Shown here piece after piece: positions 9,049 through 64,000 of a DNA stretch of 64,000 nt (the stretch's first letter is position 1; every line of letters begins with the position of its first letter). The stretch spans positions 201,562,001 through 201,626,000 of the forward strand of contig OZ024742.1 in NCBI GenBank assembly GCA_964016885.1, in the 5' to 3' direction. A program made the position numbers and the translations under genes. The stretch comes from Eledone cirrhosa (Eukaryota). Below the pieces are notes generated by a model that saw only the letters and a program-made list of their open reading frames with translations, did no database searches and was not told the origin of the DNA.

Positions 9049-9249
9049 ATAAATGATTTAAACTGAACTTTCATTATTGTAATCTCTATATAACTGCGCT
9101 GTAAAACAATCGATGTTATTACATTGAGCTATTTATCTTACTGGTAATAAGATAGTAATTAATGACTATCTTTCACTATTTAGGGTTTGTATAAAAAATA
9201 TATAACCATAAAAGCTTCTATTACATACATAACCATAAATAGTATCCTT

Positions 9250-9319
<70 letters not shown>

Positions 9320-16900: not shown

Positions 16901-17277
16901 CGCATTGGTACATTGCTCGGGCGTTGCCGATATGTGGGGATATGTCGAACGACTGCTGTCACGGGTAGGACAAATCCGGTTGACCACAGAGTCCTTTGTA
17001 ACGATCAAGCCGCCTCCCCCTTCAAAAATGAAGGAGAGGCGGTCTTCCTCTGTGTAATAGCCATGGTGAAAGAGGTGGTATGGTTGACACGTTTAAAAGT
17101 GCTGCGGGCGGACACTTTCTCTCCGGCCAACAACTGGTCCTTTTCTTTAAATACCATTTTAAGAGAAGGATCAGAATGGAGTGAGAGGAGCTCTACCCCA
17201 GCAAGTTTTATGAAAGGTGGATGAAAGTAGCAAGAATGGCCCGTGTGAATGGGCCTTCTCTCTTTATCAGCCTGTAG
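13902..17277 (+). pseudogene. LINE ORF2: AP endonuclease + reverse transcriptase + C-terminal zinc finger
   Basis: CLNARGL, DWN, SDHK, GYWKL, KSPGLDGLPYELY, FRPITLLN..KILAK, DQSKAF.RVDH, RQGCPLS, AYADDV, GGLGLP, CPRC..EETVAH..HC. Confidence 0.93.
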
Positions 17278-17518
17278 GTGGAAAGGTGGAAGTTCAAAGG
17301 AGCACCCCTCTCTGTGCTCCTAAGGAAAAGGGTTGCACACTTTTTCGGGGGTGTGTGTAACCCCCAAAACGCCTCCTCCCTATTGAGGACTGTATTGTTA
17401 ATTTTATATTTATTTGTTTTTTACTCTTTCCTTTATGTAACGCCCCCCCCCCCCCCCTTGTATTTGTCCCCTTCTTTTGTGCCCTCGTGGCAAATAAATA
17501 GAAATGTATCTATCTATG

Positions 17519-17561
<43 letters not shown>

Positions 17562-17565
17562 TTAT

Positions 17566-18812: not shown

Positions 18813-18829
18813 ATCTCTCTTTATACCTG

Positions 18830-21225
18830 CTCAACGGTTCGGGCAGGGCGGCGCGCCGGGAGGGGCTATGGATTTTGGTCCATACCTCGACGAACTACCG
18901 CGACTCTCAGACAGCGAGGCGAAGTTCTGCGAAAAACCGATTTCAGTTGCTGAGATAGGGGACGCGCTGAGCCAATGCGGCAAACGCAAATCTCCAGGTC
19001 TCGATGGTCTACCCTACGTATTTTACGTAGCAATGCCGGACTTATTCTCCGTCTCCTGGAAGCGGTCTACTGCAAATGGCAGCAGAACGGGAGAATTCCC
19101 AGTTCTGTGACCGGGGGCGTAGTCACACTAGTCAGGAAGGACGAGAATAAGGGGGATGACATAGGCAACTTCCGGCCATAATTCTGCTAAACACAGAGTT
19201 ACAAATTTTGGCCAAGGTGTTGGTAAAGAGGCTGGCGCTTGTCGTTGAGAATCTGGTGGGAGAAGCGCAGACATGCGCAATCCCGACCAGGTCCATACAC
19301 GACAACCTCCACCTCATGCTATACATCATAGAGAGGGTAGGATGTAAACCTGGCTTCGGTGGGGCCCTGATCAACTTGGATCAGTCTAAGGCTTTCGATA
19401 GGGTTGACCATCGTTACCTGGAAGCGGTGCACGAGGCGGCAGGTTTCGGACCCGTGTTCAGCGGCTGGATTGCTGCAATGCATAATAGCAACATCTGCTC
19501 AAGGGTCAAGGTGTAGGGCTACCTGTCGCGATCCATTCGACAGGGATGCCCTCTCTCCTCCCTTCTGTACCTTATGACTCTCGAGCCACTACTGCGGTAG
19601 TTGGAGCTATTGCAGGGAATCCCTCTGGAACCGGGACTGCGGAAAGCGGCGTCGATCTACGCCCACGAGGTGACAGTAATGGTGTCGAGCACCTCGCAAA
19701 TCGAGGAAGTCGGCACCTCAATGAAGGAATACGAAAGGTTCACAGGAGCGAAGCTGAACCGGGACAAGTCCATCGCTTTGCAGCTCGGATCGTGGAGGGG
19801 CAGACCGACGCTCTCCGATGGCGTCGTCGGACGCTGGACGGAAGGACCGGTGGAGAAGAACTGGAACGAGGTGACGGCCAAGGTGTTTGCACTCACCCAG
19901 AAATGGGCCGAGTGCAAACTATCCTTGATAGGTCGAGCGGAGGTGGCGAACACTTTTATAGCGTCCGCCATCTACTACCGCTTGACCGTCGTACCTTGTC
20001 CTGCCAAAACGCTCACCAAAATGGAGCGCGCGCTCTTTCAATTTCTTTGGCGGAAGCGGGCTCCTTTGGTAAGAAGGTCCATCTGCTGCCAACACCATTC
20101 CAAAGGGGGGCTGAGATGCCATGGCTGATGATGCGCAAACACGCGCTCAGGCTGCGGCATCTCTACGTATTCCTCACCGGACAACCGGTGTGGGCCCCGT
20201 TCGTGAGGCGAGCCTTCGCACTACTCGTCTGACTGACCGTGCTGCAGTGCTGGGTTAAGCAAAGACCGAGGAAAATGAGCGACTGGCACATCGAATGTGC
20301 TCAGGCGCTCACAGCCCTCTGGCAGGCGGACACGGCGATCAGTGGAGACTCCACTTCGTCATTCTATAGAGGGTTGATCCGCAGCAAATGCGACGACGCG
20401 CTCGCTGAAACTAGGCGTAGCGGAAGAAGAACTGGCCAGTCTGTTCGGTAGGACCTTCCTCCTGGGACCGATGGACAACTTCCAAAAGTCCCTGGCCTCG
20501 CAGTGCTACCGAGGAGCTCTACCAGTTCGAGACAATCTCTACAGACATGGGCACCCAGGCAGGGACCCTTCGAAAAAGATCTGTCCGAGCTGCGTGCGAA
20601 ACGAAGAAACCGTCGCGCACGTATTCATACAGGCCCTTTGGGGCTATGTAGAACGACTATTGTCGCGGGTGGGACCAATCCGGTTGACCACCGAGTCCAT
20701 TGTCATGATCAAACCGCCACCATCCTTCAAAAACAAAGGAGAGGCTGTTTTCCTTTGTGTGATAGCTATGTCGAAAGAGGTTGTATGGTGGAGAAGGTTG
20801 AAAGAGTTGAGGTCAGATTCCATTCTATCCGGCCAACAACTGATTCTTTTTTTCAAATGCCACTTTGGGAGAAGAATCAGGATGGAGAGAGATGTGCTGT
20901 ACCCCAGCAAGTTTTATGAAAGGTGGGTGAAAGTGGCGAGAATGGCTCGAGTGAATGGGCCTTCTCTCTATATCAGCCTGTGGGTTGAGGAAAAAGAGGA
21001 AGAGAGGAAAGTGGTACAAACTTTTCGTACTCCTGGAGATGAGGGTTGCACATTTTTTCGTGGGTATGTGTTACCCACATGTAATGTCTCCCCCTATTGG
21101 GGAAAATCGACTAACTTTTAAATTGCCTTTGTGATAATATTTTACCCATTTTTATTGTATGTAATCTTCCCCCTTTGTATTTGTCCTCTTCCCTTTGGGC
21201 CCCTGTGGCTAATAAAGAAACATAT
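18830..21225 (+). mobile_element. Tx1/L1-clade LINE, 5'-truncated (copy 4)
   Basis: KSPGLDGLPY, DQSKAFDRVDH, CPSC..EETVAH; 3' end followed by degenerate TCTA repeats. Confidence 0.9.
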
Positions 21226-22367
21226 CTATCTTCTTGTCTTTCCATCTTTCTATCTGTCTGTCTATATATCTACCTACACTTCTCTATAGCTGTCTATCTT
21301 CATACATTTCTCTCTATCTATCTCATCACAGACATAGAGACAGACAGACTCACAGACATACAGGAAGATAAATGTATATATATAGAGATAACACGATCAG
21401 CCTAATTTAATGGATATATGATTGATAATGATTAAAGTAAATATGAATGAAAATTATGTTAATGGATTTGAATGAATTTAAAATAAAACAGGGATGTCTG
21501 GATTGTCATGGATTTACACATAGAAACATGCAATCAAGAAATTATTAAATTAATATTCTTTACCGTCATTTTTTACAGGTACTAGTATATAAATAAGCAG
21601 AAACGTACACACATTCTTCATAGAAAATAAAAACTATGACTATATACTATACGTTTAAGAAATATTGTAGCGAGAGATAGATAGATAAAGAGATTGAGAG
21701 ATAGACAGACACAGAGACAAGGGTGGGGGTGACTGAGAAAGTCCCAGAGGTAAGTAGAATACAAAAGATGAATATAAATGGACGAATTGTGTTCCTCTTT
21801 GGTCGCCATGAAAACAGAACGACCGTACATCTAGCATACATCTAAGTTACACTTCCGAACGAAGTCTCTGCTTCGATTGCTTTTTTTATTCATTTTATTC
21901 TTCTCTAAGACGTCGTCATCTTATTTCCAGTACCCTAAGGCATTAGCGTACTCTCCTCACATCATTAAGGACTTTTATTGACAAGGGAACAATAATTTGA
22001 AAATTTTGTTTCTGGTAAGCGATTTAAGATGGCGGAAACGAATTGTTTCAGCAGACAAACATTCGCCATTGAAATCCAAATACTACCTTGAAGGAAGTCT
22101 AATTTTTATATTACAGAATCATAATAAGATGAATTAAGAGCGGAACCTGTTTCAATATAATATAAATTCGCATATTTAGCTTCCAGGTTATTTCCTTATA
22201 AAATACTCGTAAATTTGGAGTGATTATATTGGTTTATAACGCTATTTCACTTTTCGTTTACATTATATGGCTTTTCACAGAATCAGACAGCAACGTAAAT
22301 ATCATTTTCTTGTACGACATGTGTTTCAAATAACCTGTTTTCTATGGTATACAGATCTCATCAAACA

Positions 22368-26274: not shown

Positions 26275-26694
<420 letters not shown>

Positions 26695-29515: not shown

Positions 29516-30644
<1,129 letters not shown>

Positions 30645-31566: not shown

Positions 31567-31682
31567 TAAATATACATATATATATATATAACGAAGGAAA
31601 TGTGGTAAGGAACCAGATGGACCATAACGCACCAAAGTACTCAAAACTTAGGGTAGTAGAGTGGGTAATAGGAGCGAGTAGG

Positions 31683-31778
31683 ACCCCGACGGCTGAGCTC
31701 AAGCCGTTTCGACGGCTAATTCTGGACTAAATGAAAATGTTTATCCTGGTATATGAATAGCCGAGCTTCTCAGGGGGT
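31683..31778 (-). ncRNA. Hammerhead-like ribozyme with CTGAGAA core (inverted pLTR copy)
   Basis: Reverse complement of 36073-36168. Confidence 0.7.
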
Positions 31779-32746
31779 AATTCCATATATGGTAAAAGTG
31801 ATTGTCACAAGGATTGGTCAAAAGTTTGTTGTTGAGACACATAATTCTATCATGGCAACTTGTGGTAGGAAGGGGTAGCTGAACCTGCCAGTAGAAGACA
31901 GAGGGAGAGGGGTGGAGGAAACCCAGTCGTGCGTTGATAGTGCCAACTACAGCAGGGAAGTAGGTGAAGGAAGTATACTAGGGAGGGGGAGGGGGAGGAA
32001 GTCGAAACAAAATGTAAAACAATATGGGGTAAAAATATAGAAAATTACCGAGAATGTTAAGAAATCAATTAAATATAAAAAAACAAACAAACAATTTCTG
32101 AATACTATTTCCTAAGGACAGCTATCAAGTCTCTCACTGGTACTGCTAGACTAAAGAAAAGTTTACTAGGTGGGACGGAATTATAATGAGAACCTTTTAA
32201 GAAGTAGTAGTAATCAACCGAGTATATCTTACGGTGACGGGTCAACAAGTGGTGGGCCAAAATACTAAAGAAACTACCACGAAATAATAATTCAGAGTCC
32301 CGAGACTAATACGAAATAATTGTTTCTACCCTAGGCACAAGGCCAGCAACCACCCAGTGCAAAAAATAAACTAATACGAAATAATAATTCAGAATGCCGA
32401 AAAAGAATACTAATACTATCTCTAAAGGTGGCGCTACGATACAAAAATTCTAGTGCAAACTACACAAATGCTCGTACGAGGTATATGAAAATTTGATACG
32501 GAAAATTAATTCAGAATCCCCCCCCCCCAAAAAAAAACGGGTTGAGCTCAGCCGTCGGTGTCCTACTCGTTCCTATTGCCCACTCTACTACCCTAAGTAT
32601 TGAGTACTTTGGTGCGTTATGGTCCACCTGGTTCCTTACCACATTTCCTTCGTTATGTAGCTCCTATACCTGTAGTAGAGCACTTTCCGACACTACCACG
32701 CCGTATCCCTTCTTTTCCGCTAAGCTCAAGTTCTTTCACCCGCACC

Positions 32747-34874
32747 ATGCCAAAACACAACATCGACTTCTCTACCAAGAACATCCCAGTTCCACCGAAA
32801 AAACTTTACCTTCGGATGCTCACGCAAAAAATCGATCTATTTGCGAAAAGACTTAGATGGAGAACTTTTTTCTACGACAGATATTGCGACAATCAGGACT
32901 TCGGTACTAAGGAGAGATTCGGATTTAATACCTACAAATCTCCCCCTCCGAACCCTAGGCTCTCACCCTTCGAGAATGACCTTTTCCAACTGGCCAAGAA
33001 CATTAAATTCAAACCCAGACACAACCGATTCCTACAAAAACTCCGTAGCAACTTAACAGAGTATGATAACACCAATGACCTCATGGTGCACTCGGATAAA
33101 ACTGGTAACCTCTACTTCGTCAACCCCGACAGATACCACACACTTATCAGGAGCAGCCTAAACTCCACCTATAAAAAGGCTAACCACTCATGCATCGAGG
33201 ACATAAATCGAGATGGACAACAAATTACCTCCAGCCTCGGGGTCGCCGACCGCACGTAACCCCTAGTTCGACGGACACCCTACTTCACACTGAAGGACCA
33301 CAAATCCGATTTCCACCGTAAACCTTCTATCAGGCTTATAAACCCAACGAACTCCGACATAGGGAGAATCAGCAAAAAAATCCTAGACCGCGTTATACCA
33401 AAAGTTAAGCAACACGCCAGACTTAGCCTATGGGTCAACACCCAGGAAGTAATCTCATGGTTCAGCAATATGGAGGACAAACGAGACACTAAATTCATCC
33501 AGTTTGACATAGAGAGTTACTATTCTTCAATTACCTTACCGCTACTTACGGCTGCCTTGGACTTCGCCGAAACACTTGCGCCCATCACCGACAAGGAAAG
33601 AAACATCATCCTCCACGCCAGGAAGAGAGTCCTACTCTTCAACAACTCCAAATGGATAAAGAGAGCTCCCGACTCACCCTTCGACGTCAGCATGGGCGCG
33701 ACGGATTCGGCTGAGGTCACAGATCTTATAGGATTATTTCTACTAGCTAAACTCACCGAGATGTTTCCTGCATTCGGCGGTGGATTGTACCGTGATGATG
33801 GGCTCCTTACCCTTAAAGGGTACAACCCCAGTAGTACAGACCGGGTCCGTAAACAATTAATCATCTTCTTCCGCGACTGGGATTTGAAATAACCCTACAA
33901 ACGTACCTGACCCGAGTAAACTTCCTGGACGTTACCCTTGACCTCGATAATGATCTGTACTACCCATACAGGAAACCCAACGACAACCTGCACTACATCC
34001 ACCGCCGGTCAAACCATCCTCGGAACATCACTAATAACCTGGTTAAAAACATCTCCCTCCGCATATCTCTATGTCCGCTAATGAGCAGATATTCGAGGAA
34101 CATGCACCCTATTACAACCAGGCCCTCAAGCGGAGTGGTTTCCGGGAGGAAATATCCTACTGTCCAGCTTTCATTAGCGGAAACAGCAGGCGACACCGCC
34201 GCTCACGCAATGTAACATGGTTCAATCCTCCCCACCACGCCGAGGTGACAACTCCTATGGGGAAGATCTTCTTTAGGCTCATTGAAAAACACTTCCCACT
34301 ACAGCACCGCTACCACAACATAATTAACAAAAATACCATCAAACTCTCCTACAGCAGCACACTAAACTTTGCACAAAACATCGTCTCCTCTAACAACAAC
34401 AAACTCAACCCCTATGGAAGAAATAAACTAAATAGCAGTGGAGAGCCGACCAGGAGGTGCAACTGTCCTGATGGATACATTTTCCCCCTCGACAACAGAT
34501 GCAGAGATCGTAATGTGATCTTCCAGTGCAACGTGAGGACGGACACCTCCAACAAATCTTATATAGGATTAACTGTATGTGACTTCAAGACCCGTCTATA
34601 CCAACACAGACATACCTTCCGAATCCCGGCCCGGCATCACGCCACCACACTTTCGGGCCACATCTGGGACCTCAAGGATAACAATATTACCTATGATCTC
34701 ACTTGGAGCTTACTGCCCAGAGTCAACTCTTACACGGGAAGACGCCGTCTGTGCAATTTATGCTCGGAGGTAACTTTACAAATGCTGTTTTCGACGGACC
34801 AACACCTAACCAAGAAAGATGAAATGGTAACTGCATGCAAACACAAATTGCGTAGGACTTACCTCACCCTTTGA
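32747..34874 (+). pseudogene. Naiad-like PLE RT + GIY-YIG (stop at 33257, frameshifts near 33890 and 34070)
   Basis: FSTKNIPVPP, HSDKTGN, LKDHK, FIQFDIESYY, FDVSMG, GGLYRDDGL, NFLDVTLDL, SNHP, WFNPP, CNC, YIG, CNLC, CKH. Confidence 0.92.
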
Positions 34875-36072
34875 GGGCGAGGTAATTCCTACGCAATGAC
34901 CCGGGGGTAGGGGGGGGTAGACAAGGGCTGTAACACCCCACTTGCCGACTTTGTAATGGGTAACCCCTGCTTGCAAAGGTAGACGTAAGATCTTTTATAT
35001 ATCTTTTTATCGCTTCCTCTATAATTCCTTCTTCCCCCCATCCCTCCATAGTCCTTCCACCCCTGTCCTCTTTCTCTGTCGTCGTCTTTTTCACTTTCTC
35101 GCCCACCCAAGGCAGGCCCTCGGTCCTTTGTAGCCTCAGTACCCCCACCCCCTTCCCCTATTATATGATAGAATTGGCCGACTCCGCTTTTTATAGCAGA
35201 TGTGATAGACCCCGGATATTTGCCTTCTTATCCGATGGCTGCCCCTTTTTCGTGCTTTCTACATCTCTTAGTGGTATCTTAGATTTAATTTCTCGTATAT
35301 CAGTATTTATTTTTTTTTTTTGGGGGGGGGAGGATTCTGAATTAATTTTCCGTATCAAATTTTTCATATACCTCGTACGAGCATTTATGTAGTTTGCACT
35401 AGAATTTTTGTATCGGAGCGCCACCTTTAGAGACAGTATTAGTATTCTTTTTCGGCATTCTGAATTATTATTTCGTATTAGTTTATTTTTTGCACTGGGT
35501 GGTTGCTGGCCTTGTGCCTAGGGTAGAAACAATTATTTCGTATTAGTCTCGGGACTCTGAATTATTATTTCGTGGTAGTTTCTTTAGTATTTTGGCCCCC
35601 CTCTTGTTGACCCATCACCGTAAGATATACTCGGTTGATTACTACTACCTCTTAAAAGGGTCTCATTATAATTCCGTCCCACCTAGTAAACTTTTCTTTA
35701 GTCTAGCAGTACCAGTGAGAAACTTGAGAGCTGTCCTTAGGAAATAGTAACCAGAACTTTTTTTTTTTATATTTAATTGTTTTTTTAACATTCTCGGTAT
35801 TTTTCTATATTTTTACCCCATATTGTTTTACTTATTGTTTCGACTTCCTCCCTCTCCCTCTCCCCTCCCTAGTATACTTCCTTGACCTCCTGCCCTGCTG
35901 TAGTTGGCACTATCAACGCACGACTGGGTTTCCTCCACACCCTCTCCCTCTTTCTTCTACTGGCAGGTTCAGCTACCCCTTGCTACCACAAGTTGCCATG
36001 ATAGAATTATGTGTCTCAACAACAAACTTTTGATCAATCCTTGTGACAATCACATTTACCATATATGGAATT

Positions 36073-36168
36073 ACCCCCTGAGAAGGTCGGCTATTCATAT
36101 ACCAGGATAAAAATGTTCATTTAGTCCAGAATTAGCCGTCGAAACGGCTTGAGCTCAGCCGTCGGGGT
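36073..36168 (+). ncRNA. Hammerhead-like ribozyme with CTGAGAA core and long stem III
   Basis: ACCCC-CTGAGAAG-gtCGGCTA...TAGCCGtc-GAAA-CGGCT tgagctc AGCCG-TC-GGGGT. Confidence 0.72.
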
Positions 36169-36180
36169 CCTACTCGTTCC

Positions 36181-36640: not shown

Positions 36641-36772
36641 AATATATGTAGGAGGTGAGTTTTATTGTAGTACAATAAAGCAATGCAGATATCGGATAAG
36701 AAGCACTCTACAGTTTGTGGGACTGGAGTATGCATAATATAAGATCAAAAGATGGTTAAAGGAGTTCCATAT

Positions 36773-37636: not shown

Positions 37637-38212
37637 ATGTGTCACAACATACGCCAGAACACGTGCGAACACAAACACTCACCTTACCTTGAATCAAAGA
37701 AGAACTACAGTAATAACTCTTCGCTTTTTCTACAAAAACACCCTATCGCACACAACATGAACAAAAAGCACAAACACGATAGGTATTCCTTTGACCAGAC
37801 CATGAGAAGTAGTAAAACCAGGAGATCATTCTCAAGATCTCAACAGAGACTACCAACAAGGAATGTGGAAACAAAACGTAGAATAACCAGATCACTCTCA
37901 AGATCTCAACAGAGATTGCCCACAAGAAACTGGACGAAAAAACGATCTAAACCTGAAAGCAAACCTAGGTCATTTTCCCAGATTGTTAAAAATAATGCTA
38001 ACAGGAAGAAAAATAATATACAGAATACCAAAAATAGGACAAAATACATAACGAAACCAAATATAATATCACGACCAAAAGTTCATCAAGCGAACACCAA
38101 CAGGAATATAAATCCTGAACAGAGAAAAATTCATTTTTTAACGTCAGGACAACAAAAACCGGAAAAAGAAAAACTCCAGGAGGAAACATACCCAAAACAG
38201 CTGTACACGTAG
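37637..38212 (+). CDS. Basic Arg/Lys/Ser-rich upstream ORF of the Neptune-like PLE (191 aa)
   Basis: Open frame from ATG 37637 with duplicated RS.SRSQQRLPTRN; overlaps the RT frame; T_TTT_TTA at 38134-38140. Confidence 0.55.
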   Translation: MCHNIRQNTCEHKHSPYLESKKNYSNNSSLFLQKHPIAHNMNKKHKHDRYSFDQTMRSSKTRRSFSRSQQRLPTRNVETKRRITRSLSRSQQRLPTRNWTKKRSKPESKPRSFSQIVKNNANRKKNNIQNTKNRTKYITKPNIISRPKVHQANTNRNINPEQRKIHFLTSGQQKPEKEKLQEETYPKQLYT

Positions 38213-40431
38213 ATCCTAAAATAATTAATTTATCTAAAAGAGATCTTGACAATGATGAAATGCAAATTCTGTCAAAAGGACTGAAATTCACACCGACTCC
38301 AACAGTCAACCACCAAGAACTGAAGGCGGATACCCAAGAATTCTGTCGAAAATTACGTCTTGTAGAATTCTTCGCTGATAAAAATAATGAGAGTGATGAA
38401 TCACTAGTAAAGAATAAATCAAATTTCACTCCGCCAAAAGGTAGAAATATCTATCTCGACCAATACATTGACATCCTGTCTAAATTTCCTCTTAGACATA
38501 ATACTAATGTTAGGCCAAACATTAACAAATCAGAAATGTCTGCACTTAAACGTATACAAAATGATAAAACAATAATAATTAAACAAGCAGATAAAGGGGG
38601 TGCAGTTGTTATAATGGATACTGAATACTACAAGGATTTGGTTGAGGAACAACTGAAAGACACAACATTCTATCATGAAATACCGTCAAATATAGATCAC
38701 AACATCATGAAGAAGATCAACAACCTGGCTTCAAAATACCACAACCCATTTACTGATAAGGAAAGAGACTACATCACCAATTTTGAGCCGAAACCCAGCA
38801 ACCTGTAAGGCCTACCGAAAGTTCATAAGTCAAAAGAAATACAACTAGCAGTAAGAGAACAAAACAGTGAGTACATTAAATTATTACACCCAAAAGACTT
38901 AAAACTTAGACCTATTATAGCTGGTCCAACATGCCCCACTCACCGTCTAAGCAATTTTGTTGACATTATTTTGAAACCACTATGTATTCACATACCCAGT
39001 TTCATCCGGGAGGATATCGACTTCCTGTCCCATCTTCCCAAAATCACGGAAACGAATGCACTTCTACTCAGTTTTGATGTGGTAAGCCTTTACACCAACA
39101 TTACACATGATTTAGGAATAAAGGCGGTTAAATACTGGGTGGAAAAACATAGAGAAGTGATTCCCATTAGATTCACAGCGCCATTTATATTAGACGCAGT
39201 TAAACTTATTCTGGAAAACAACACTTTCTTCTTCAATGGAAAGAATAACATCCAAATTAGAGGCACAGCGATGGGAACGAAGTTTGCTCCCGTTTAGGCG
39301 AACTCTGTAATGGGATACTTAGAACAACAACTCTACCAAGAAATAGAGGAAAAATATAGTACTGACTTTAGAAAGTACATTGAAAAATCTTGGAAGAGAT
39401 ACCTTGACGACTGTTTCATCATCTGGACAGAATCTCTAGATACTCTGGATGAGTTCAATATCCTCCTCAATAACCTACACCCATCTCTCCAATTCACAAA
39501 AGAGATGAGTAGGACCAAATTACCATTCCTCGATATAATGATAATCAAAAACGACACCACCATTACCACGGATATATATTATAAACACACAGACACCCAT
39601 CAATATCTGAATTTTAAGTCGTGCCATCCACCTCATACAAAACGCAACATCCCATACTGCCTAGCCAGAAGAATTTGTACCATTGTAGAAGATACGAATA
39701 CCAGGTACAAACGCCTAACAGAACTAAGAGAATTTTTGCTCAAACAAAAATACCCATCTCTACTTATAGAAAATGGCATACAGCGGGCTATAAAAATACC
39801 TATACAACAACTTAGAACAACCCAAGGAAGAAGAAACCAAGAACTGATCATACCATTTATAATGACACACAACCCATGTCACCAGAATATCTTCAACACT
39901 GCCAAAGCAAACCTACCGATCATTGCTCAAAGTAATGAATTAAAAGGCTTAATCACAGATCGATCAAGACAGCCAAAAAATTTGAAGCAATTGCTAACAA
40001 AAGCAAAGTTTGACCTTAACAACAAAGACCAATCATTCACTGTATCTAAATGCAATGATAATCGATGCGGCACATGTCAATCCATACACGCCGGTCAATA
40101 TATGAAAACAAAAACTGGAAAAATATTCCCAAATGCAAATATGAACTGCAAAAACAGAAATCTAATTTACTGCATTAAATGCCCGAATTGTGAAGAACTA
40201 TATGTCGGTCAAACTGGAAATGCACTATCGGAACGTGCACGGGTACACCGTCAACAAATCAGAGACCCAAATGTCCACCAGATACCCCTAAGCGGCCACC
40301 TGGCAACATGTGGTCAGGGAATATTTATAATATTCCCATTCTACAAATTACACAGCCCAAGTGAAATCAAGAGAAAAATCAAAGAAAAGAATTTTATTGA
40401 TAAATTCAAACCCAAGCTAAATGAACAATAA
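38134..40431 (+). pseudogene. Neptune-like PLE RT + GIY-YIG (single frame, stops at 38806 and 39295)
   Basis: IINLS, LSKGLKFTPTP, KQADKGGAVV, GLPKVHK, RPII, FDVVSLYTNI, GTAMGTKFAP, RYLDD, LPFLD, SCHP, C..RC.TC, LIYCIKC..C...YVGQT. Confidence 0.93.
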
Positions 40432-41047: not shown

Positions 41048-41234
41048 TATATAAATATACATATATATATATAAATATATTGTTATACTTTGGGAGGGTC
41101 ATGTTGCCAATAAGAAACACACGCACCAGTTGCTTTCACTTCAATTTATTATATATTTATAAATTTACAACTTTACAAATTTATAAATTTCTGGTTGGTT
41201 GGTTGGTTCCACAACCAGATAGTTGTTTATATAT

Positions 41235-41279
41235 AGTCATAGTCCTTTCGTCACACACTCTGTGACCTCTTCAGTGACT
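41235..41279 (-). ncRNA. Hammerhead ribozyme type I (inverted pLTR)
   Basis: AGTCA-CTGAAGA-gGTCACA/TGTGAC-GAAA-ggac-TA-TGACT. Confidence 0.85.
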
Positions 41280-41796
41280 GGGGATTCCTTTCTTTGTCTC
41301 CGTGCCTCTCCTTTGTTCTGTCCTACGCCATTTTGTTTCTGTGTGTGTGTTGTGTGCCCAGTTTGCGCATGCGCCACATCCGGGTGTCTGTGTGTGTTTA
41401 TGTTCATTTATCTATTTGTTTATTTATTTTTTTATTTACATGTTATTGGTTGGTTGTTTGTTCTATGTGTGTGTGTGGTTTCATTTTGTCCTTAATTGTA
41501 AGTTGTGATGTTGCTGTTCCACTCATATTTTCTATTTAATTTTGGTTGTAATTCTTTTATGTTTATTGCCTCTGTAATTTTGCATCTTTTCTGTGTGTAG
41601 ATTCTATTTTTATTTCTATGTTCTCTAATTTACCCTTGTGTTCTATCTTAGCATGTTGGTAGAGTACAGATGATTCTTTATTATCTTGAAGGTCTCGCAA
41701 GTGTTCATTTATCCGTTCCCCTATACTACGAGCTGTCAAAGAGAATAACCAAGACGAACACACAGACACACAAAATAGGGTAGATAACAACAATGA

Positions 41797-44301
41797 GCCA
41801 GTGGAAAGAGACAGAGTAATTATGAGAGACATAGAAACAACCATGAGGCTGTTGGTGGAAATAGAAATAGAAACAACACAACTAACTATAACAATAGCAC
41901 TAGCACACATAAAGCAGCAGCCTGGAACTCTCCGTTTTATAATCCCTCCGATAAATCATTCGACCTGCGACGAGTCCACGCCACGACTTTACCATTTAAC
42001 ACACGCACGCAATTGCCGTCGCAGGTCGATGAACAAACAGAAGCACAATTTAGTATAGCTAGATCCGAACTTAGAAATATTATAGAACAGTATAGCAAGA
42101 AGCATAATAGAATGGAGGCCCAGCAACTGGGAGAAAAATCTGCAAATGGCTTGCGTAAGCTCATGCAGCGCTCACGTAATGGAGAGATAGCATGCTTTCC
42201 AACAGACAAGTCTGGCAGAATGTCGGTTGACAGCCTGCCAAACTACATCCAGGCAATGCAACCCCACATCACAAGAGAGGTAACACCACAGGAGCATGAG
42301 GATAGAGAAAAAGCCCTCAATGCCCATATGGTGATGTGGACGAATATAATGCAGCCCAACAAAAGGACCTCCAACAAATTCCAGGCCTGGAACAATGACG
42401 TGCCGGCGTTGTATGGGCTTCGAAAAGACCATAAAACGGGCTGTGACCCTGTCGCGGGACCACCAACACGGCCAGTCTGTGGAGCTAACATTGCTAGTAA
42501 CTACAGAATGTCCTACTTCCTCTCCCTGATCATACGCCCCATCATTGAAATGTCCCCAGATGTATGTGACAGCACGGAGGACCTCCTCAGCAGAATCGGC
42601 GTGAGTAACCGATCTGGGGACCTAACAAACTGCATAATAGGCAGTATGGATGTTGTGTCCCTGTATCCATCTATTGACGTGGATTTTGCTGTGGAGAAAT
42701 GCGTAGAAATGATCAGCGAGAGCAAGGTTGAGTTCCGTGGGATTGATACCAGTGAGCTGGGACTTCTACTTAAGCTTACCTGTAGTAATAGTTACCTAGA
42801 CACATATGACGTTAGCAACCTGTGCCCTACAAGACCAGCAAGAGGCAGACCACCTACCATTACCTCAATGGCCAAGAAAACCCACACAGATAGATGGAAC
42901 GGGTGGATCAGAGCCATACGGACACCCGAAAACCACGATGAACTGAAGAAAATGATTGCACATGCGGTAGGGGCCAGCATAAAACTAACCCTTAAGGAAC
43001 ATATGTTCAAATTTAATGGAAAAACATATGCCCAAGAGGAAGGAGCAGCCATTGGTGTTAGCATTGCAGGCGACATAGCTAACTTATTCATGGTATGGTG
43101 GGACAGTAGACTTAAACTTAAACTTAAAGAACAATTAGAAGACAGCTTAACCCTGATAATGTACTCCCGCTACGTAGATGATATAAACATCGTAGTTAAG
43201 ACACCCCCACTAGAGAACAGTCAGGAACTAGAGAAAAACACAATGGAAAGCATCCAACAGATAGCAAACTCCATCCACCAGAGCACTAGAGTTACTATAG
43301 ACTACCGAAGTAGACACCCCAACCATCGATTACCTGTACTAGACACAGAGCTCTGGTTAGATACCATTAACAACCAAAAACAAATCCTCCATTCCCATTA
43401 TGCCAAACCCATGACTTCCAAACATCTGATCCACCGAAACTCGGCCATTTCAGACCATACCAAAATCAACATACTGATTGCGGATTTGGTACGGGTGATG
43501 AGAAATGTGTCCCGCATGTGCAACCCCGAAGAACTAGAGAGACACATACAACACTTCATCCACCGTATGCAGTTCTCTGGCTACAATCAGAGAGATAGAA
43601 TCAGAGTGTATAGAGGAGCCAGAACTAAATGGGAAAAAATGGTAAATAATGACATAAATGGGACCTGCCCCTTGTATAGGAGCAAATTTTGGAATAGAAT
43701 AGAAAGAACTAGGAACAAGGCTAATAGAATAAACTCATGGTATGATAGCAATAAATACCAGAGTGTTATGTTCATCGATACAACCCCTAGAGGCGAACTA
43801 GCCTACAAATTTAGAAGGGCCCTAAATAAACATAAACTCAATATTAAGATAGTAGAAAGACCAGGAACCTCCTTAAAAACACTTATTAGCAAGACATACC
43901 CTTTCCAAAGACCCTCATGTATAGATAAGAAATGTATAACCTGTAAAATAAGCCCCCATATTAACTGTAAAACTAGAAATGTAGTGTATAGCATAAGATG
44001 TACTGAAGGACAATGTAGAGACAAAAATATAGTGTACATAGGTGAGACAGCTCGTAGTGTAGGGGAACGGATAAATGAACACTGATGAGACCTTCAAGAT
44101 AGTAAAGAATCATCTGTACTCTACCAACATGCTAAAATAGAACAGAAGGGTAAATTAGAGAACATAGAAATAAAAATAGAATCTACACACAGAAAAGACG
44201 CAATGTTTAGACAAATCACAGAGGCAATAAAGATAAAAGAATTACAACCAAAATTAAATAGAAAATATGAGTGGAACAGCAACATCACAACTTACAATTA
44301 A
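41797..44301 (+). pseudogene. PLE RT + GIY-YIG, one long open frame with TGA TGA at 44083-44088
   Basis: PTDKSG, LYGLRKDHK, PPTRPVCG, GSMDVVSLYPSI, QEEGAAIG, RYVDDI, LPVLD, SGY, C..C..C, NVVY.I.C, YIGETARS..R..EH. Confidence 0.92.
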
Positions 44302-44502
44302 GGACAAAATGAAAACACACACACACATAGAACAAACATCCAACCAGTAACATGTAAATAAACAAATAAATGAATGAACATAAACACACACAGACACCCG
44401 GATGTGGCGCATGCGCAGACTGAGCACACAACACACACACAGAAACAAAATGGCGTAGGACAGAACAAAGGAGAAGCACAAAAACAAAGAAAGGAATCCC
44501 CA

Positions 44503-44545
44503 GTCACTGAAGAGGTCACAGAGTGTGTGACGAAAGAACTATGAC
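44503..44545 (+). ncRNA. Hammerhead ribozyme type I
   Basis: GTCA-CTGAAGA-gGTCACA gagtg TGTGAC-GAAA-gaac-TA-TGAC. Confidence 0.85.
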
Positions 44546-45119
44546 AATATATAAACAACTATCTGGTTGTGGAACCAACCAACCAACCAGAAATTTATAA
44601 ATTTATAAATTTATTATAAATTTATTATAATAAATTGAAGTGAAAGCAACTGGTGCGTGTGTTTCTTATTGGCAACATGACCCTCCCAAAGTACAACAAT
44701 ATCGGTTTCAACACACGATTTCAGATAAAGAATCTTGCTAAACAAATTCAGAAACGATATATATATATATATATAACAGAATTGAACGAACATTATTCTG
44801 CCGTCACAGAACTAAAACCCTTTTTTCCCACTACAAGCCGAATATTACATAAAAGAGGGACATCCCCCAACTATATAAACCTTAATCTAGTTAGAAAAAT
44901 ATAAAAACAATCTCTTCTCAACATATATTAATAACCTTAAATTACCACACTAATAATGTAAAGATATGCTGATGAGAATAGGTGCAAATATGCGATAATG
45001 AATGTGTCTAAAAACGTCCATAAGTATGTATATATATGTGAAAATGTATATAAATAAGTAAATATATATATATGTTTGATGTGTATAGTTAGATGTAAGT
45101 GTATTCATGTATTAAAGTG

Positions 45120-46435: not shown

Positions 46436-46985
46436 AATTATAAGAGACAAAGAACTGTTCAAAACATTTTTATGCTTACAACTGTTTCCTCCAAACCGAG
46501 GTTTGGTTTCTTCGGAGCAATTTATTATTGAATGAACATTTATATGACCACCTTTTCACCCAAGAGACATACAGATACATATACAAATATTGTGGGTCAA
46601 CATTCATTACACCATTTAGTATGGCAGTACACATTTAGAGATTACATTCATATTAAAAGATACAATCAAAAATACAGGTTAAAATACATGAAATTAAGCG
46701 GTTATAGAGTGCTATAGTTATACGTGTGCAAGCACGTGCGTCTTGTTTATATAGTGTGGCAGAGAGTTACGTGTAATAGAAGCACTTAAACAGGTGATCA
46801 AGAGTGTTAAGAGGGTTGATCTGGTAATGAATTATTTATATGATTGTTATAGCCTGTGCTTGGAGAAATAATATAAGCATTAAAAATAATGTAAGCATTA
46901 AAAATATTGGAAATGCGTAGCGAAGCGATGATATGGATTTAACTACAAAAGGTTTTTGTATTTGCATAACCATAAATAGTATACT

Positions 46986-47328: not shown

Positions 47329-47410
<82 letters not shown>

Positions 47411-47451
47411 GATATTAACAAATGGAAACTATATTTATAAAACCATATTTA

Positions 47452-47512
47452 TTTCATTATACATATTTCAAGGATACTAAGGTAAATTATGGTATGCCTT
47501 CATCAGACAAAA
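47452..47512 (-). ncRNA. Hammerhead ribozyme type I
   Basis: ttttgt-CTGATGA-aggcatac/gtatcctt-GAAA-tatgta-TA-atgaaa. Confidence 0.75.
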
Positions 47513-49548
47513 TACAATATATACCAGTTTTATAAATAAACATTGACGTACCCTTTCAAAATGCGACCATTACTTTTGGACGATATCAGGATAGTGGTTT
47601 GTTTATTTTTATAAGTTGTTTTGTTAAGGATAAGTATAAAGACGGAGAGATAGAGAGAAATGTGGAGAAAAGAAAGGGAGAGATAAATAAAGAAAAAAGA
47701 AGAAAGAAAAGAAAAAAGTAAAAAAGAAAACAGAGGAAAACAACAGAGAGATATCAAACCACCAGACAGAGAGAAAAAACTCAAGAGAGAGAAATATAGA
47801 GATAGAGAGAGGGGGAGAGAACGAAAACCTTAAGTCATGTCATATTAAGTTGAGTTAACATTTGAGATGAAATGAATATATAAAATTAGAAATATTAATA
47901 TTCATGAATGGAATATACATATATAATATGAGAAATTAATCATAGTTTAATTATGATTAGATATTTAGTTTAAAAATTGAGATCAATATATTAAAAATTG
48001 GAATTTAAACATTACAAAATATATATATTGCTAGAGAAATTACCTATCGTATATCACGTACACATAGGCAAAGATACATAAATATATATATACACACACA
48101 CTCGGAAAATACATATTATATCTACTCCCGCATATAACATATACATACAAAGCATAAGTGATTTTTTATTACTGCTATACATTCCTTGTGTTATTAAGTA
48201 AAAAAATTTAGTATATATATATAAATATATAGGATTAACTTTCATGCATCTATGGCTGTTAAATTATGCATATCCGCAATCAAAACTGCATGGGTAAGCA
48301 TGCACACACACAATTCTTAGCTATACAAATATAAATATGTGTGTGCATCTTCACCCAATTGGTAGACACGCGTCACTCATGCATATATACAGACAGACAT
48401 ATACTCATAAAAAAGCATATAACACATGTATATGTATGTTAATACACATATATAGATACATAATCGTATAGAGATAAGTATACATCAATATATTACATAG
48501 TACAATTGAGTATATAAAATACAAAAGGATTATATTTTGGAAATACAATTATATCAATATAACTTAAAAGGCAAACGAATTCTACAAATATCAAAATATT
48601 AAAATATTTTAAAATATTATAGAATATTTCAAGCCAAAATAATATGTTTAATAGATTTAGTATAGAAATTTATCTTACGTATATTTTACTCAAGATATTG
48701 AAAGGATAAACTTTTGAAAATTATGAGAAGCTATCAGAATAAAAACAAACCTAATAAAAAATAAATAACATATTATATCAATATAACTTAAAAAACAAGG
48801 ATTCTACAGATATCAAAATATTATAGAATATTTTAAGCTAAAATAATATGTTTAATATATTTAGTATAGAGATTTATCTTACGTATATTTCATTCAAGAT
48901 ATTGAAAGGCTAAACTTTTCTAGAATAGTTTATTATATTTATATTTATATTTAGGAAGAAAATTTATACTTGAGAACTTAACCAAAGAAAATGAAAAAGG
49001 TGAAGGAATCTAATGATTTATCGACAGGTTTCATATATTAACCAAATTACTTAATTAATTGTACTACATTTTAAATTTATATTTATATTTAAACGTTGAG
49101 TTCAATCTATGTCTGCAGCAACTGAATAAATCATTCCTTAAATTAAGGGAATTTTTGGTCTTTAATATAAAGAATATTTCCTCTATACAAAGATCACAAT
49201 TTTCTGAAGAGGAGTTAAAAGGAGTAGCTTATGAAATAATATTCCAAATCAGCGAATATTCAACATTATCTCGTTTTAGGTCCCATAATAGGCTAGATAG
49301 CGAAGTTGAAGATTTTTTGTTTGGATCCGTAAAAGAGTTTTTATGATTATTGAAGCGGGATTTAAATTCTGTAGAGGTAGAACCGACATAATTAAATGAA
49401 TTTAAATTAGTTTTAACATTATAATTATAAACTACATTTTAGCTAAGCAGTTGTTATTTAACGGACAGTTGGATTTATTTCTACAGTTACAATTATTCGA
49501 TTGGATATTGCTTGGGTTATTATTGGTATTTTGGTTACGTTTTAAATT

Positions 49549-49738
49549 GGTGGTGGATTGGCAGTATCGGTAGAGGGTCGGACGCCATGCTTTCCAGCAT
49601 AGTTACGTCCCTTTACGATCTGAGTTCAAATCCCGCCGAGGTTGACTTTGCCTTTCATCCTTACGGGGTCGATAAAATAAAGTACCAGTAATGCACTGGG
49701 TAATTGCTGGCCTTGTGCCTAAAGTAGAAACAATTATT
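49549..49738 (+). mobile_element. tRNA-derived SINE, copy 3, inserted antisense in the family C ORF
   Basis: Same family as 1044 and 25190; breaks the ORF after NLAQNINRINN. Confidence 0.9.
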
Positions 49739-50603
49739 AATTCTATTAATATTTTGCGCTAAATTTTTGGTGGAAGAATAAGTTAATTTTATAGTATGTC
49801 TATTAAAAATTGAGTAATATTTATGTGTTCTAGGGAAGCGTTTGTCAAGAGCTTTAAAGAATAGTTTAGCAATAGGGGTTTTAATATTTAGTGAGAAAGG
49901 AGGAGCAAACCATAATATATTCCTAGTTCTATTTCTTTTTCGGCTTTCGGAATTATTGTAATGTTTTCTATTATAGTTGTTAAAATTGTTACCATAATTA
50001 AAGTTGTTATTATTTTGGTTAGTTTGTATATTATTATTATTATCGATGTATTTAATTTTATTTCTATACCCAGCTCTACCTAACGCTTCGTTGTAATAAT
50101 GCACTTTTTCATCAAATATATTCTTATTAGATGAAATTCTTGAAATTCGTTCTTGAACAGAGTTCACTATAGTATATTTAACGGATCTGGGGTGATTAGA
50201 GTTAAAATTGACATAATTTAAGTTCTCATTTAGTTTGTGAAATGGATAATGAAGACATGTGTTGAGATTTAGTGTTACATCTAGAAAATTGACTATTTTA
50301 TGGTTATTCTCTATTTCTACTTTTAGATTAAGGTAATTAAAAAATTGTATAATTTGTTTTCTTTTTCTATTTGGTTCACAGCTATTATTTTCTATAAGTA
50401 AAATCATGTCGTCACGATATAAGCTTCCGGTTACACCTGGTATTTTTCTATGTAGAGAATTAATTATATCTCCGTCTTTATACTTATCCTTAACACAACA
50501 ACTTACTAAATTAAACAAACCACTATCCTGATGTCGTCCAAAAGTAATGGTCGCATTTTGAAAGGGTATCTCAATGTTTATTTATAAAACTGGTATATAT
50601 TGT

Positions 50604-50664
50604 TTTTGTCTGATGAAGGCATACCATAATTTAACTTGGTATCCTTGAAATATGTATAATGAAA
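50604..50664 (+). ncRNA. Hammerhead ribozyme type I (inverted pLTR)
   Basis: ttttgt-CTGATGA-aggcatacca/tggtatcctt-GAAA-tatgta-TA-atgaaa. Confidence 0.78.
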
Positions 50665-50796
50665 TAAATATGGTTTTATAAATATAGATTCCATTTGTTA
50701 ATATCGTATATCTATTCCAAATACTTGTCGAGTGCTTTATATCAGTTATAAAAATATTTGCTTGTTGTATCCCAACAATTTAAATAGAACTTTTGC

Positions 50797-51320: not shown

Positions 51321-51724
51321 ATAATAATAAATTTGAAGACTAAAATACAAAGAGGGCTCGATAAGGATAAATATATATCAAATATATAAGAACCGTAGAG
51401 CAAATATTTATTAAAATAACAGATTAAAGATTAAGCAAAGAATCGCTGCTTTCACCCTTAACGGGATCTTCTGAAACTAACAAAGTCAATCTGTAAACGC
51501 AGAAGTGGATATTTCAAAAAACGTTGCAACCGGAGGAAGACAGGAAGACGATACTTTGATATATATAAATATACATATATATATATATATATAAATATAC
51601 ATATATATATACATATATATAAATATATATAAATATATATAAATATATATATATAAATATACATATATATATATATATACATATATAGATATACATATAT
51701 ATATATATACATATATAAATATAC

Positions 51725-51778
<54 letters not shown>

Positions 51779-51912
51779 TACTAGGGAGAGGATCAGGGGT
51801 GTATAACACTCCACTTATCCAGCAGGCAGTATAAGGTTAGCTCGATGTCTGAGGACAGAGCCGTGATATAGTAAATAACAAAGAACGCCTATAGCATATG
51901 CATATCTTTACT

Positions 51913-51958
51913 TGCTAACATTGTTTCATCCGCACTATAAGTGGGACTCATCAGAGCA
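51913..51958 (-). ncRNA. Hammerhead ribozyme type I (left arm)
   Basis: Reverse complement of 54156-54201. Confidence 0.88.
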
Positions 51959-52122
51959 TAAAGGTTAATTACATACCATACAAGCAATAACAAATCCAAG
52001 ACATTGAAGAATGAAAAATAATAGAAGATAAAGGATATTAAGGAAGTAAAAGTAAAAATAAGAATAAAAATAAAAATAAAAATAAAAATAAAAATAAAAA
52101 TAAAAATAAAAATAAAAATAAA

Positions 52123-52153
<31 letters not shown>

Positions 52154-52721
52154 TAAAAATAAAATAAAATAAAAATAAAATAATAAAAATAAAAATAAAA
52201 ATAAAAATAAAAATAAAAATAAAAATAAAAATAAAAATAAAAATAAAAATAAAAATAAAAATAAAAATAAAAATAAAAATAAAAATAAAAATAAAAATAA
52301 AAATAAAAATAAAATAATAAAATAAACAATGAAAAATAAGGGGTGCTATCAGTCGCAGTTGGGCGGGGTGCTGTCAACATATAGTTACATACAAGCATAC
52401 ACATGGATAAGAGAACAGACAAGAGTAGATAAGATAGATAGGATTAGGTAAGAGTAGGTAAAAAATAGGTGAAAAACAGACTTATAATATATATAAGAAA
52501 ATATAAAGAAATATATAACAAACTTACATATAAAATAAAATATACAGATAATAGTGATACAGGGTAAGGAATGAAATAAAATAATATAAAATTAAAATTA
52601 AAATTATATAAAATAGAACATAATATAATATAATCATAAAATAAGATAAAATAAGGTAAACTAAGGTAAAATAAAATAGACTAAAGTAAAATAATATAAT
52701 ATAAGATATAATTAAATGTAA

Positions 52722-52753
<32 letters not shown>

Positions 52754-53573
52754 AATTAAATTAAATAAATAAATAAAATTAAAATTAAAATTAAATTTAA
52801 ATAAATAAATAAATAAATAAATAAGTAAATAAATAAATAAATAAATAAATAAATGAAATTAAATAAGTAAATAAATAAAATTAGATAAAATGAAATGAAA
52901 TAAAATAAAATAAAATGAAATAAAATAAAATAAAATGAAATAAAGTAAATTGAGATAAGATATATATTTCTTTAGAATATATCTCTTGAATATATCAGGG
53001 GCCCACGAAGGCACTAAGTGTCACAGTTATCTGTATCACTTGACCATTTTTTAAAAATATATTTCTTGAAAATATCAGGGCCCCACGAAGGCACTGTGAA
53101 CCGGTTTGTGATTACCCCACCGCTCAACTGTGTGAATGCACACCCGTGACTTTCGAGTGAACTTTTGGGACTGCCCAACCTGGGACGCCTCCATTGCCTT
53201 GCAATGGTCAAGTGATACTGCTGACTGTGACACTTAGTGCCTTCGTGGGCCCCTGATATCTTCAAGAAATATATTTTTAAAAAATGGTCAAGTGATACAA
53301 ATAACTGTGACACTTAGTGCCTTCGTGGGCCCCTGATATATTCAAGAGATATATTCTAAAAAAATATATATCTTATCTCAATTTACTTTATTTCATTTTA
53401 TTTTATTTTATTTCATTTTATTTTATTTTATTTCATTTCATTTTATCTAATTTTATTTATTTACTTATTTAATTTCATTTATTTATTTATTTATTTATTT
53501 ACTTATTTATTTATTTATTTATTTATTTAAATTTAATTTTAATTTTAATTTTATTTATTTATTTAATTTCATT

Positions 53574-53605
<32 letters not shown>

Positions 53606-54155
53606 TTACATTTAATTATATCTTATATTATATTATTTTACTTTAGTCTATTTTATTTTACCTTAGTTTACCTTATTTTATCTTATTTTATGATTATATT
53701 ATATTATGTTCTATTTTATATAATTTTAATTTTAATTTTATATTATTTTATTTCATTCCTTACCCTGTATCACTATTATCTGTATATTTTATTTTATATG
53801 TAAGTTTGTTATATATTTCTTTATATTTTCTTATATATATTATAAGTCTGTTTTTCACCTATTTTTTACCTAATCCTATCTATCTTATCTACTCTTGTCT
53901 GTTCGCTTATCCATGTGTATGCTTGTATGTAACTATATGTTGACAGCACCCCGCCCAACTGCGACTGATAGCACCCCTTATTTTTCATTGTTTATTTTAT
54001 TATTTTATTTTTATTTTTATTTTTATTTTTATTTTTATTTTTATTTTTATTCTTATTTTTACTTTTACTTCCTTAATATCCTTTATCTTCTATTATTTTT
54101 CATTCTTCAATGTCTTGGATTTGTTATTGCTTGTATGGTATGTAATTAACCTTTA

Positions 54156-54201
54156 TGCTCTGATGAGTCCCACTTATAGTGCGGATGAAACAATGTTAGC
54201 A
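54156..54201 (+). ncRNA. Hammerhead ribozyme type I (right arm)
   Basis: TGCT-CTGATGA-GTCC cact tat agtg c GGAT-GAAA-CAATG-TT-AGCA. Confidence 0.88.
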
Positions 54202-54240
54202 AGTAAAGATATGCATATGCTATAGGCGTTCTTTGTTATT

Positions 54241-54311
<71 letters not shown>

Positions 54312-54328
54312 TATATATATATATATAA

Positions 54329-54391
<63 letters not shown>

Positions 54392-54392
54392 A

Positions 54393-54439
<47 letters not shown>

Positions 54440-54440
54440 A

Positions 54441-54496
<56 letters not shown>

Positions 54497-55816: not shown

Positions 55817-56140
<324 letters not shown>

Positions 56141-59036: not shown

Positions 59037-59296
59037 ACATACATACATACATACATACATACATACATACATACATACATACATACATACATACATACAT
59101 ACATACATACATAAGTCTAAATATGTCTTAAGCCAAGAGGCTCATTTGGCCGGCGCTTATCCCGGTTTCATAGCGTGAGGTGACTACAATTTTTAAGTCC
59201 AGTCCGCTGCTACGTACCGCGTGATTCGGACAGAGCATACGAAGTCATCGACTATTTATTGCTTCAGTAAAGCGCTCAACTTAGCGGCATTTAGAG

Positions 59297-60679
59297 TAAG
59301 GGGTTAACAGAACAGGGATGTACGGTTCACACCATGGTCTGTCGGTTGTGAAGCAGATAAAAAAAAGCGCTCACTTATCATCTTCTTTGTCTCCAATACA
59401 TCTTTTTATTTCGTATATGTTCTTCTCTCTCTTCTACTGTACGACTTTGCACCAATCCTAATTAACTTAATCTTTACTTTAATTCTGATTCATCCTCTTG
59501 CTATTTCCTTAAGTCGGCCTACACCTTATTTACTGTATTTTAAATTTATCTTTAATCCTTTTTCCCATATCTGATTTTGATAATCACTTAGAGTTACCTT
59601 AAGTTGGCCTAATTGGTAAAAGAACAATCTAATAACTCCGTACCGGTCAGACATGTTGGTCCGGAGACCTTCATCGGTTTCGCGGATAGCTGACACAAGC
59701 AGCGGGGAACAATGTTATGGGCCAATCCCCTCCTGGACATTCCCTATACATAATGTAAGATTTCACTCTGACGTTCTGTTCACCGAGTGCTTGAATCTCC
59801 CGCGAGCCAGAGAATAGGACATTTGCATGTAATCCGTGAGTTTGATTAAACTGAGAACTAGCGAGGAGTACGGCTATCATGCTCCCGACAATTTAGAACC
59901 AGTTATACTATAACTATACAACATATATGCTATACACTCTGGTTTGTTGTTTAGGCATACAGGCAGCTATTTCTTCACTATAAACATTGTTTTCATTATA
60001 ATTATAATCATCTCTTTCGCAGATACTATCCCCTTTAATATAACCTTTCCTCTTATTCTTAATCAATTAATTAATTAGTTTATTTATTGTATATTAATCT
60101 ATTTCGTATATAGTTAATTTTGTTATCGGTTATAATATTCAAAGTTGATGCTGACCTGTGGAGAATGTGGAAGTGTGTCACCACTATTATAGCAGCCGCT
60201 AAGACTACTACTACAAGAGATAATCATAGAGAGAGGAGGGAGAAGGACTGCCAATCGTTTTCGTTAATTCCTAACATGACGAGCAGTTCCACCAAAACTC
60301 TTGGGGTCATAGAGAGGCCAGCCGTCGAAGAAACAACACCACGCGTTCGACCAGTTCCCTGTATCATGAAAATAATATTTTTTTTCGGGGAAATTATTAG
60401 ATGTTTCCAAATTTTAAAGGTTTCTTGGAACTTTCAATGTTTATTTTAAGTTTTGCCATCTGAAGAGCTCAGGCTATCACCATTGACAGTCCTCAATGAA
60501 ATATGTATAACGGAGTTTTAAATAAACCTGAATTAACTGAATATGGCCTCCGATCTTTTATTAATATATAATGCTCCGTCTTGTACCATTTATATAGGTC
60601 GTTGAGCGGTCCTTTTTATCTGCTTCACAACCGACAGACCATGGTGGGATCCATATATCCCTGTTTTGTTAGCCCCTTA
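59297..60679 (+). mobile_element. Old PLE remnant with inverted tails (59297-59372 / 60603-60679) and decayed HHR at 60456-60513
   Basis: ccat-CTGAAGA-(degenerate 14 bp stem II)-GAAA-tatgta-TA-acgg, then AATAAA; inverted tails read directly. Confidence 0.65.
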
Positions 60680-60694
60680 ATCTCCCTCTCTGTC

Positions 60695-61642: not shown

Positions 61643-64000
<2,358 letters not shown>

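Follow-up and report, generated by a model that had tools for sequence, protein, structure and literature searches.

The window is a 64,000-nt stretch of the Eledone cirrhosa genome (assembly GCA_964016885.1, contig OZ024742.1). It contains an inverted pair at 51772 to 54248, with a left arm on the minus strand (51772 to 53095) and a right arm on the plus strand (53095 to 54248). Global alignment of the two arms gave 1008 matches and 9 mismatches, and two of the nine mismatches are at the outer edge, outside the shared part. The arms also differ by one 10-nt and one 4-nt indel, and by about 200 nt in the length of an (AAAAAT)n run, which is expanded in the left arm (52047 to 52339) relative to the right (53978 to 54067). 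The palindromic element has a GC content of 0.21. The two arms meet head to head at 53095/53096 with a 1-nt microhomology. A one-sided stretch of 140 nt with a GC content of 0.52 (53096 to 53235, plus strand) begins at this junction, and an 80-bp tandem duplication occupies 53203 to 53365 on the same strand. At the other extreme, the left arm carries 94 nt (51772 to 51865, minus strand) with no counterpart in the right arm. The element is set in TA-type microsatellite. The left target flank is a (TA)n-type run (51559 to 51780) that overlaps the element end by a TATA microhomology, and the right flank is a (TA)n run at 54244 to 54496. There is no coding ORF in this copy, in which the longest ATG frame is a low-complexity FYFY frame of 171 aa. 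An earlier note on this DNA had described the palindrome, its extreme AT richness, the missing RT ORF, the central 80-bp repeat, a GC-richer spacer of about 140 bp, (TA)n on both sides, and arms differing by substitutions, a 10-bp indel and microsatellite length. All of this was borne out, but the note had overlooked the extra 94 nt of the left arm.

Each arm carries a type I hammerhead with a minimal stem III. The left hammerhead (51899 to 51963, minus strand) has its core at 51954 and a predicted cut at 51917/51916, and the right hammerhead (54151 to 54215, plus strand) has its core at 54160 and a predicted cut at 54197/54198. Both point outward and show no difference across 181 nt, in agreement with the claim that identical hammerheads lie close to both outer ends. 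Core and stems of type I can form: stem I has 4 plus 5 bp, stem II has 7 bp, stem III has 2 bp and carries a loop that is nearly palindromic, and the cleavage site is GUU. However, this is not the minimum-energy fold of the monomer, and it scored no better than shuffled sequences (z of −0.7), as expected because stem III is minimal. Rfam gave no hammerhead at the gathering score in the window (0 matches). With the full copy at E ≤ 5, Rfam gave nine weak matches with no ribozyme among them; miRNA models on a TA run scored best. Hydra-clade hammerheads have the same build: they are type I, sit close to the 3′ end and have a short stem III, and several have GUU (available part of PMC8557442, File S2).

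When the genome was searched with the hammerhead end, 1114 candidates emerged, and all 40 of the 40 that were scored had 100% identity. Searches with the spacer and with a piece of the ORF gave 678 and 912; these three totals count candidates and are not copy numbers. Around the top matches we took 72 stretches of 10 kb, which resolved into 64 insertion events besides the window after eight overlapping pairs and one duplicated locus were merged and a second insertion in L038 was counted. Since the loci were chosen among the top-scoring matches, they are the youngest copies, and the sample is biased toward these. Between one ribozyme cut and the next, the full unit measures 4950 nt. It comprises a 213-nt leader, an 829-aa ORF whose first ATG is at +214 after the cut in full copies, and a 2247-nt 3′ UTR that finishes with the spacer, the 80-bp duplication, an AT-rich tract and the hammerhead. 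In other copies the spacer extends upstream through the 3′ UTR to an ORF with RT and, at its C terminus, GIY-YIG. The 829-aa ORF is intact in seven instances, found in 6 of the 64 other insertions. The family also contains partial tandems forming pLTRs, inverted 5′-truncated copies and the one-sided tail, and its termini run into TA-type repeats, consistent with a preference for insertion into (TA)n. The earlier note had favored a non-autonomous element, and genome-wide extension of the arm and spacer had been set beforehand as a check. The extension does reach RT/GIY-YIG, and the sequence belongs to an ORF-bearing Penelope-like element (PLE) family, which speaks against that claim. The note's fallback reading, a long PLE 3′ UTR truncated before its ORF, agrees with what the other copies contain. 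In both arms the sequence is that of the 3′ terminus of an autonomous, young PLE.

Copies of this family stop at two fixed 3′ ends, at about +51 (short end) and about +145 (long end) after the ribozyme cut. Both stops end in TATA, and in the template CGGCTC lies within 2 nt beyond. The left arm is a 5′-truncated copy running from reference position 3994 to 5001 and on through the leader to the long end at +145. The right arm is a 5′-truncated copy running from 3853 to 5001 and finishing at the short end at +51. Both ends of the window element therefore fall exactly on the two natural termini of the family. The extra 94 nt of the left arm is the 5′ leader of the element before the ORF (+52 to +145), and the 80-bp duplication is part of the family's 3′ UTR. 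The spacer corresponds to reference 3853 to 3993, and it is one-sided because the right arm is truncated 141 nt further upstream than the left arm. It was ruled out as a separate functional part; it is plain 3′ UTR at the place where the right arm reaches further 5′.

The 829-aa product (P0001) has the RT motifs DIDAYY, FDITMG and YRDD and the C-terminal endonuclease motif IVY..YIG. It also has RWR at 53, DKT at 136, CxCx5C at 703, CxxC at 801 and CxH at 829, and it lacks DKG and CX2-5CxxC. The available part of PMC8557442 gives as marks of the Hydra clade RWK, a change of DKG to DKT, CxCx5C in place of CX2-5CxxC, CxxC, CxH and no CCHH. The Hydra-type motifs of P0001 recur in 113 to 120 of the 120 homologues listed, with RW[KR] in 115 and DKT in 113. 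By eye, the protein resembles the Hydra rows of the published alignment (PMC8557442, Fig. S7, as available), and its endonuclease region, also judged by eye, tracks those rows. The length of 4950 nt falls outside the norm of less than 3 kb, which the accessible text of PMC8557442 gives for the clade in general and which is typical, not diagnostic. Pfam at E ≤ 0.1 found neither RT nor GIY-YIG in P0001 and returned only sub-threshold GIY-YIG in 3 of 25 homologues, and PDB sequence searches with P0001 gave nothing relevant. The domain calls therefore rest on motifs. Among named homologues, the closest is a protein of Argonauta hians with 43% identity. We assign the family to the Hydra clade on its motifs and on the by-eye alignment comparison. 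We also regard it as separate from all listed Hydra families, since its hammerhead sequence is unlike that of every one of them. Between the thumb and the linker, residues of about 490 to 600 (L034, 3970 to 4310) form an N/G/S-rich, internally duplicated stretch that is missing from most homologues. N-rich inserts are described for the Adineta Penelope in the available part of PMC3846280.

We scored the ends of all insertions. All 31 of the 31 two-ended insertions (30 plus the window) pair one long end with one short end. By comparison, the 31 single-arm events divide into 15 long and 16 short ends. If the two ends were chosen independently, 31 mixed pairs out of 31 would have a P of about 5e-10. 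Three events were excluded, namely L067, which has lost its left end, L095, whose right arm is interrupted, and L097, which has no 3′ end. L052 and L074 contain an inverted piece in their interior that lacks a terminus, and were scored as single-arm. The right end of L045 was read from the printed termini, as a small deletion hid it from the pattern search. L046 and L057, scored once in this count, are the same two-armed insertion, with its junction and flanks present on two contigs in opposite orientation. They share flanks as well as the junction and are therefore one locus that was duplicated (or co-mobilised). No count of end pairing was found in the available literature that we searched, a search that lay mostly outside subscription literature.

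The two arms of one insertion diverge by 0.3 to 0.6%, compared with 1.0 to 1.9% between insertions, and they mostly share subfamily-diagnostic sites. This pattern fits one source transcript, and later conversion between arms could add to the similarity. The arm that reaches further 5′ is the short-ended one in 15 of the 31 events, the long-ended one in 15, and ambiguous in one. Where the short-ended arm reaches further, as in the window, each arm has sequence that is missing from the other. Where the long-ended arm reaches further, the whole short-ended arm is contained within it. The arms of L080 (6114 to 7766) do not overlap, as one covers +71 to +145 and the other ends at +51. This geometry is expected from two primings on one RNA. 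The inversion junctions of the other insertions are at varied reference positions, mostly with a 1- to 4-nt overlap or a short insert, and some of them (L061, L050 and L095) are short palindromes.

We conclude, with a probability of roughly 0.95, that the window element is one insertion of a young, ORF-bearing Hydra-clade PLE, consisting of two 5′-truncated 3′ UTR copies placed head to head in (TA)n. In keeping with this, reads and contigs of other runs continue upstream of 53095 to 53105 into 3′ UTR-like sequence. It is very improbable that the palindrome is an assembly or read fold-back artefact, even though long TA runs border the element and none of the listed records in four sequencing runs joins the junction. 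The insertion may be private or uncovered in those runs. The earlier note had argued that the differences between the arms speak against a read fold-back. This argument holds, with seven internal substitutions, two indels and unique element sequence in each arm. In addition, both ends lie exactly on natural termini and the same build occurs at thirty other loci, and we rejected an artefact on these grounds. The note's own preference was for a retrozyme-like parasite, a non-autonomous hammerhead element whose inverted dimer would itself be the unit of copying. The window copy without an ORF and its two identical, intact-looking hammerheads would suit such an element, and animal retrozymes have been proposed to derive from PLE pLTRs (bioRxiv 10.64898/2026.07.22.740005, as available). 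Non-LTR retrozymes are likewise non-coding and PLE-related, with a type I hammerhead. However, according to the available part of the same preprint they are tandem units, each with a hammerhead; such same-strand repeats are amplified as units, whereas the window holds one inverted pair with a unique junction. That junction occurs once in the genome (a control pattern gave 0 matches), and therefore the dimer was not amplified as a unit. Junctions vary among the other insertions, and the sole repeated one is the duplicated locus L046/L057. The hammerheads lie on opposite strands instead of in tandem, and they cannot excise a monomer. Moreover, other copies continue into the ORF, and in the predicted fold of a read-through RNA the hammerhead pairs with its own antisense (87% paired). 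We consider the retrozyme reading extremely doubtful and rejected this identity, as there are neither same-strand tandem units nor a non-coding unit amplified as such. The twin hammerheads are the pLTR ribozyme, simply carried along in each arm. A read-through transcript is predicted to form a duplex of about 1 kb that buries the ribozyme, which would make the window copy most likely dead on arrival.

The uniformly mixed ends of the two-armed insertions, set against the 15:16 split of the single-arm events, point to coupled priming from both target strands. We suggest that the GIY-YIG domain would cut both strands of the (TA)n target. One target 3′-OH would then prime at +145 and the other at +51, each at a UAUA able to pair with the target. 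Because both start sites lie downstream of the ribozyme cut, the template would be an uncleaved or circular RNA. In the window, both cDNAs would have ended prematurely, one at 3994 and the other at 3853, and microhomology would have joined these truncated cDNAs head to head. Taken alone, the model in which both target strands prime seems to us slightly better than an even bet. The stricter version, in which twin priming is obligatorily coupled and one complex uses +145 on one strand and +51 on the other, never the same site twice, might equally be right or wrong. Such a complex would probably be a protein dimer on one RNA, with each start site marked by a repeated TATA-(CA)-CGGCTC signal. The anole PLE protein cuts and extends both strands, its two start sites bound the tail, it is predicted to be a dimer, and it used uncleaved RNA (PMC11167929). 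However, the start site of the anole element is not homologous to the cut DNA, whereas there is a TATA overlap here. The main rival to twin priming involves the same PLE, with a cDNA that folds back or self-primes and is resolved by the endonuclease, leaving the tail on one side. Self-priming is proposed in the available part of PMC3846280 and endonuclease resolution in that of PMC8557442. Fold-back also predicts near-identical arms and a one-sided tail, and it could accommodate the palindromic junctions and the 15 of 31 insertions in which one arm contains the other. In another 15 of the 31, the window among them, neither arm is a plain copy of the other, because one has the tail and the other has extra 5′ sequence. 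These insertions, and the non-overlapping arms of L080, would need later trimming after fold-back, and we consider this route rather unlikely.

The window as a whole is a dense PLE cluster in TA runs. The earlier note had listed eight smaller units as sharing the architecture of the palindrome, and this was confirmed only in part. Palindromes extended on one side are found at 36734, 29077, 55336 and 55817, but the units at 22455 and 46436 are single ends, and those at 26275 and 59297 have short terminal inverted repeats only. None of the eight has DNA similarity to the focal element. At 36734 the palindrome measures 341 nt and carries twin hammerheads, and the unit at 29077 is the paired end of the family at 41077 to 44702. 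The unit at 55817 is an end of, or related to, the family at 31590 to 36180, as is the one at 22455, which has a short central palindrome. No hammerhead core was found at 55336. The end at 46436 is non-inverted and is a relative of the family whose ORF lies at 4474 to 6924. The last two units, 26278 to 26536 and 59293 to 60683, have terminal inverted repeats of 46 bp and 81 bp, respectively, and are more like DNA transposon or MITE remnants.

A sister Hydra-type family is present at 2694 to 9254 (ORF 4474 to 6924), 46436 to 46600 and 61767 to 64000, and its protein is 50% identical to P0001. In its hammerhead-like motif, CCGAAGA replaces CUGANGA in all copies viewed, while the stems and the palindromic stem III are kept. 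This is a possible core variant. The long end of the sister family likewise finishes with TAGTACTATA or TAATACTATA, resembling TAGTATACTATA in the focal family. A complete PLE insertion of another Hydra-type family, textbook in form, lies at 31590 to 36180, with an inverted copy plus tail, a pLTR, a broken ORF and a 3′ end. Its hammerhead-like motif has CUGAGAA and a long stem III. Three further PLE insertions with RT/GIY-YIG ORFs are at 38119 to 40431, 41077 to 44756 and 47409 to 50790, and each of the last two is an inverted pair whose hammerhead cores face outward and which is extended at just one side. A 309-bp inverted pair with a 72-bp direct repeat and a TA-run end, at 29594 to 30529, has no hammerhead core and is possibly a PLE without a ribozyme. 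The GC-rich, broken and tandemly repeated ORF pieces at 14389 to 21276 look, from their translation, like a non-LTR (endonuclease-RT) retrotransposon.

For PLEs, head-to-head 5′-truncated copies, targeting of (TA)n and a tail on one side are already in print. The available parts of PMC8557442 and PMC3846280 describe an inverted 5′-truncated copy, a one-sided tail and (TA)n, and report the tail as optional or frequent without a count. The Adineta Penelope (PMC3846280) and the anole Poseidon (PMC11167929), as far as the accessible texts describe them, share the head-to-head inversion with a tail on one arm and likewise have two fixed ends matching two start sites. The tail is 94 nt here and 30 to 40 bp in canonical PLEs as published. 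Both ends of our family precede the ATG, whereas those of the anole Poseidon lie within the ORF (PMC11167929). Hydra-clade PLEs such as Penelope-13_HM and Hydra-1_Obim (Craig et al. 2021, PMC8557442) share with it the C-terminal GIY-YIG, RW[K/R], DKT, CxCx5C, CxxC and CxH, as well as (TA)n insertion and a type I hammerhead that lies close to the 3′ end and has a short stem III. Penelope-13_HM also has a 966-nt 5′-truncated inverted copy, with a hammerhead on each strand (PMC8557442, available part). Our family differs from these PLEs in its 829-aa ORF, with an N/G/S-rich stretch after the thumb, and in its 94-nt tail. One unit measures 4.95 kb, of which the 3′ UTR takes up 2.25 kb, against 1.1 to 3.0 kb listed for Hydra (PMC8557442, File S1, as available). 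In Schistosoma, truncated PLEs were given as the source of pairs of minimal hammerheads on opposite strands (Cervera and de la Pena 2014, PMC4209133, available part); these hammerheads are about 100 to 700 bp apart, compared with 2.2 kb here.

The window element is thus ordinary PLE debris, from a family that matches no listed Hydra family and widens the size range of the Hydra clade. Where an animal genome shows palindromes with outward-facing twin hammerheads flanked by (TA)n runs, truncated PLE ends are the first thing to check for. A young family with intact ORFs and sharp ends provides a counted rule that constrains a partly known transposition mechanism. If coupled priming is true, the family would make the building of PLE head-to-head repeats directly testable.
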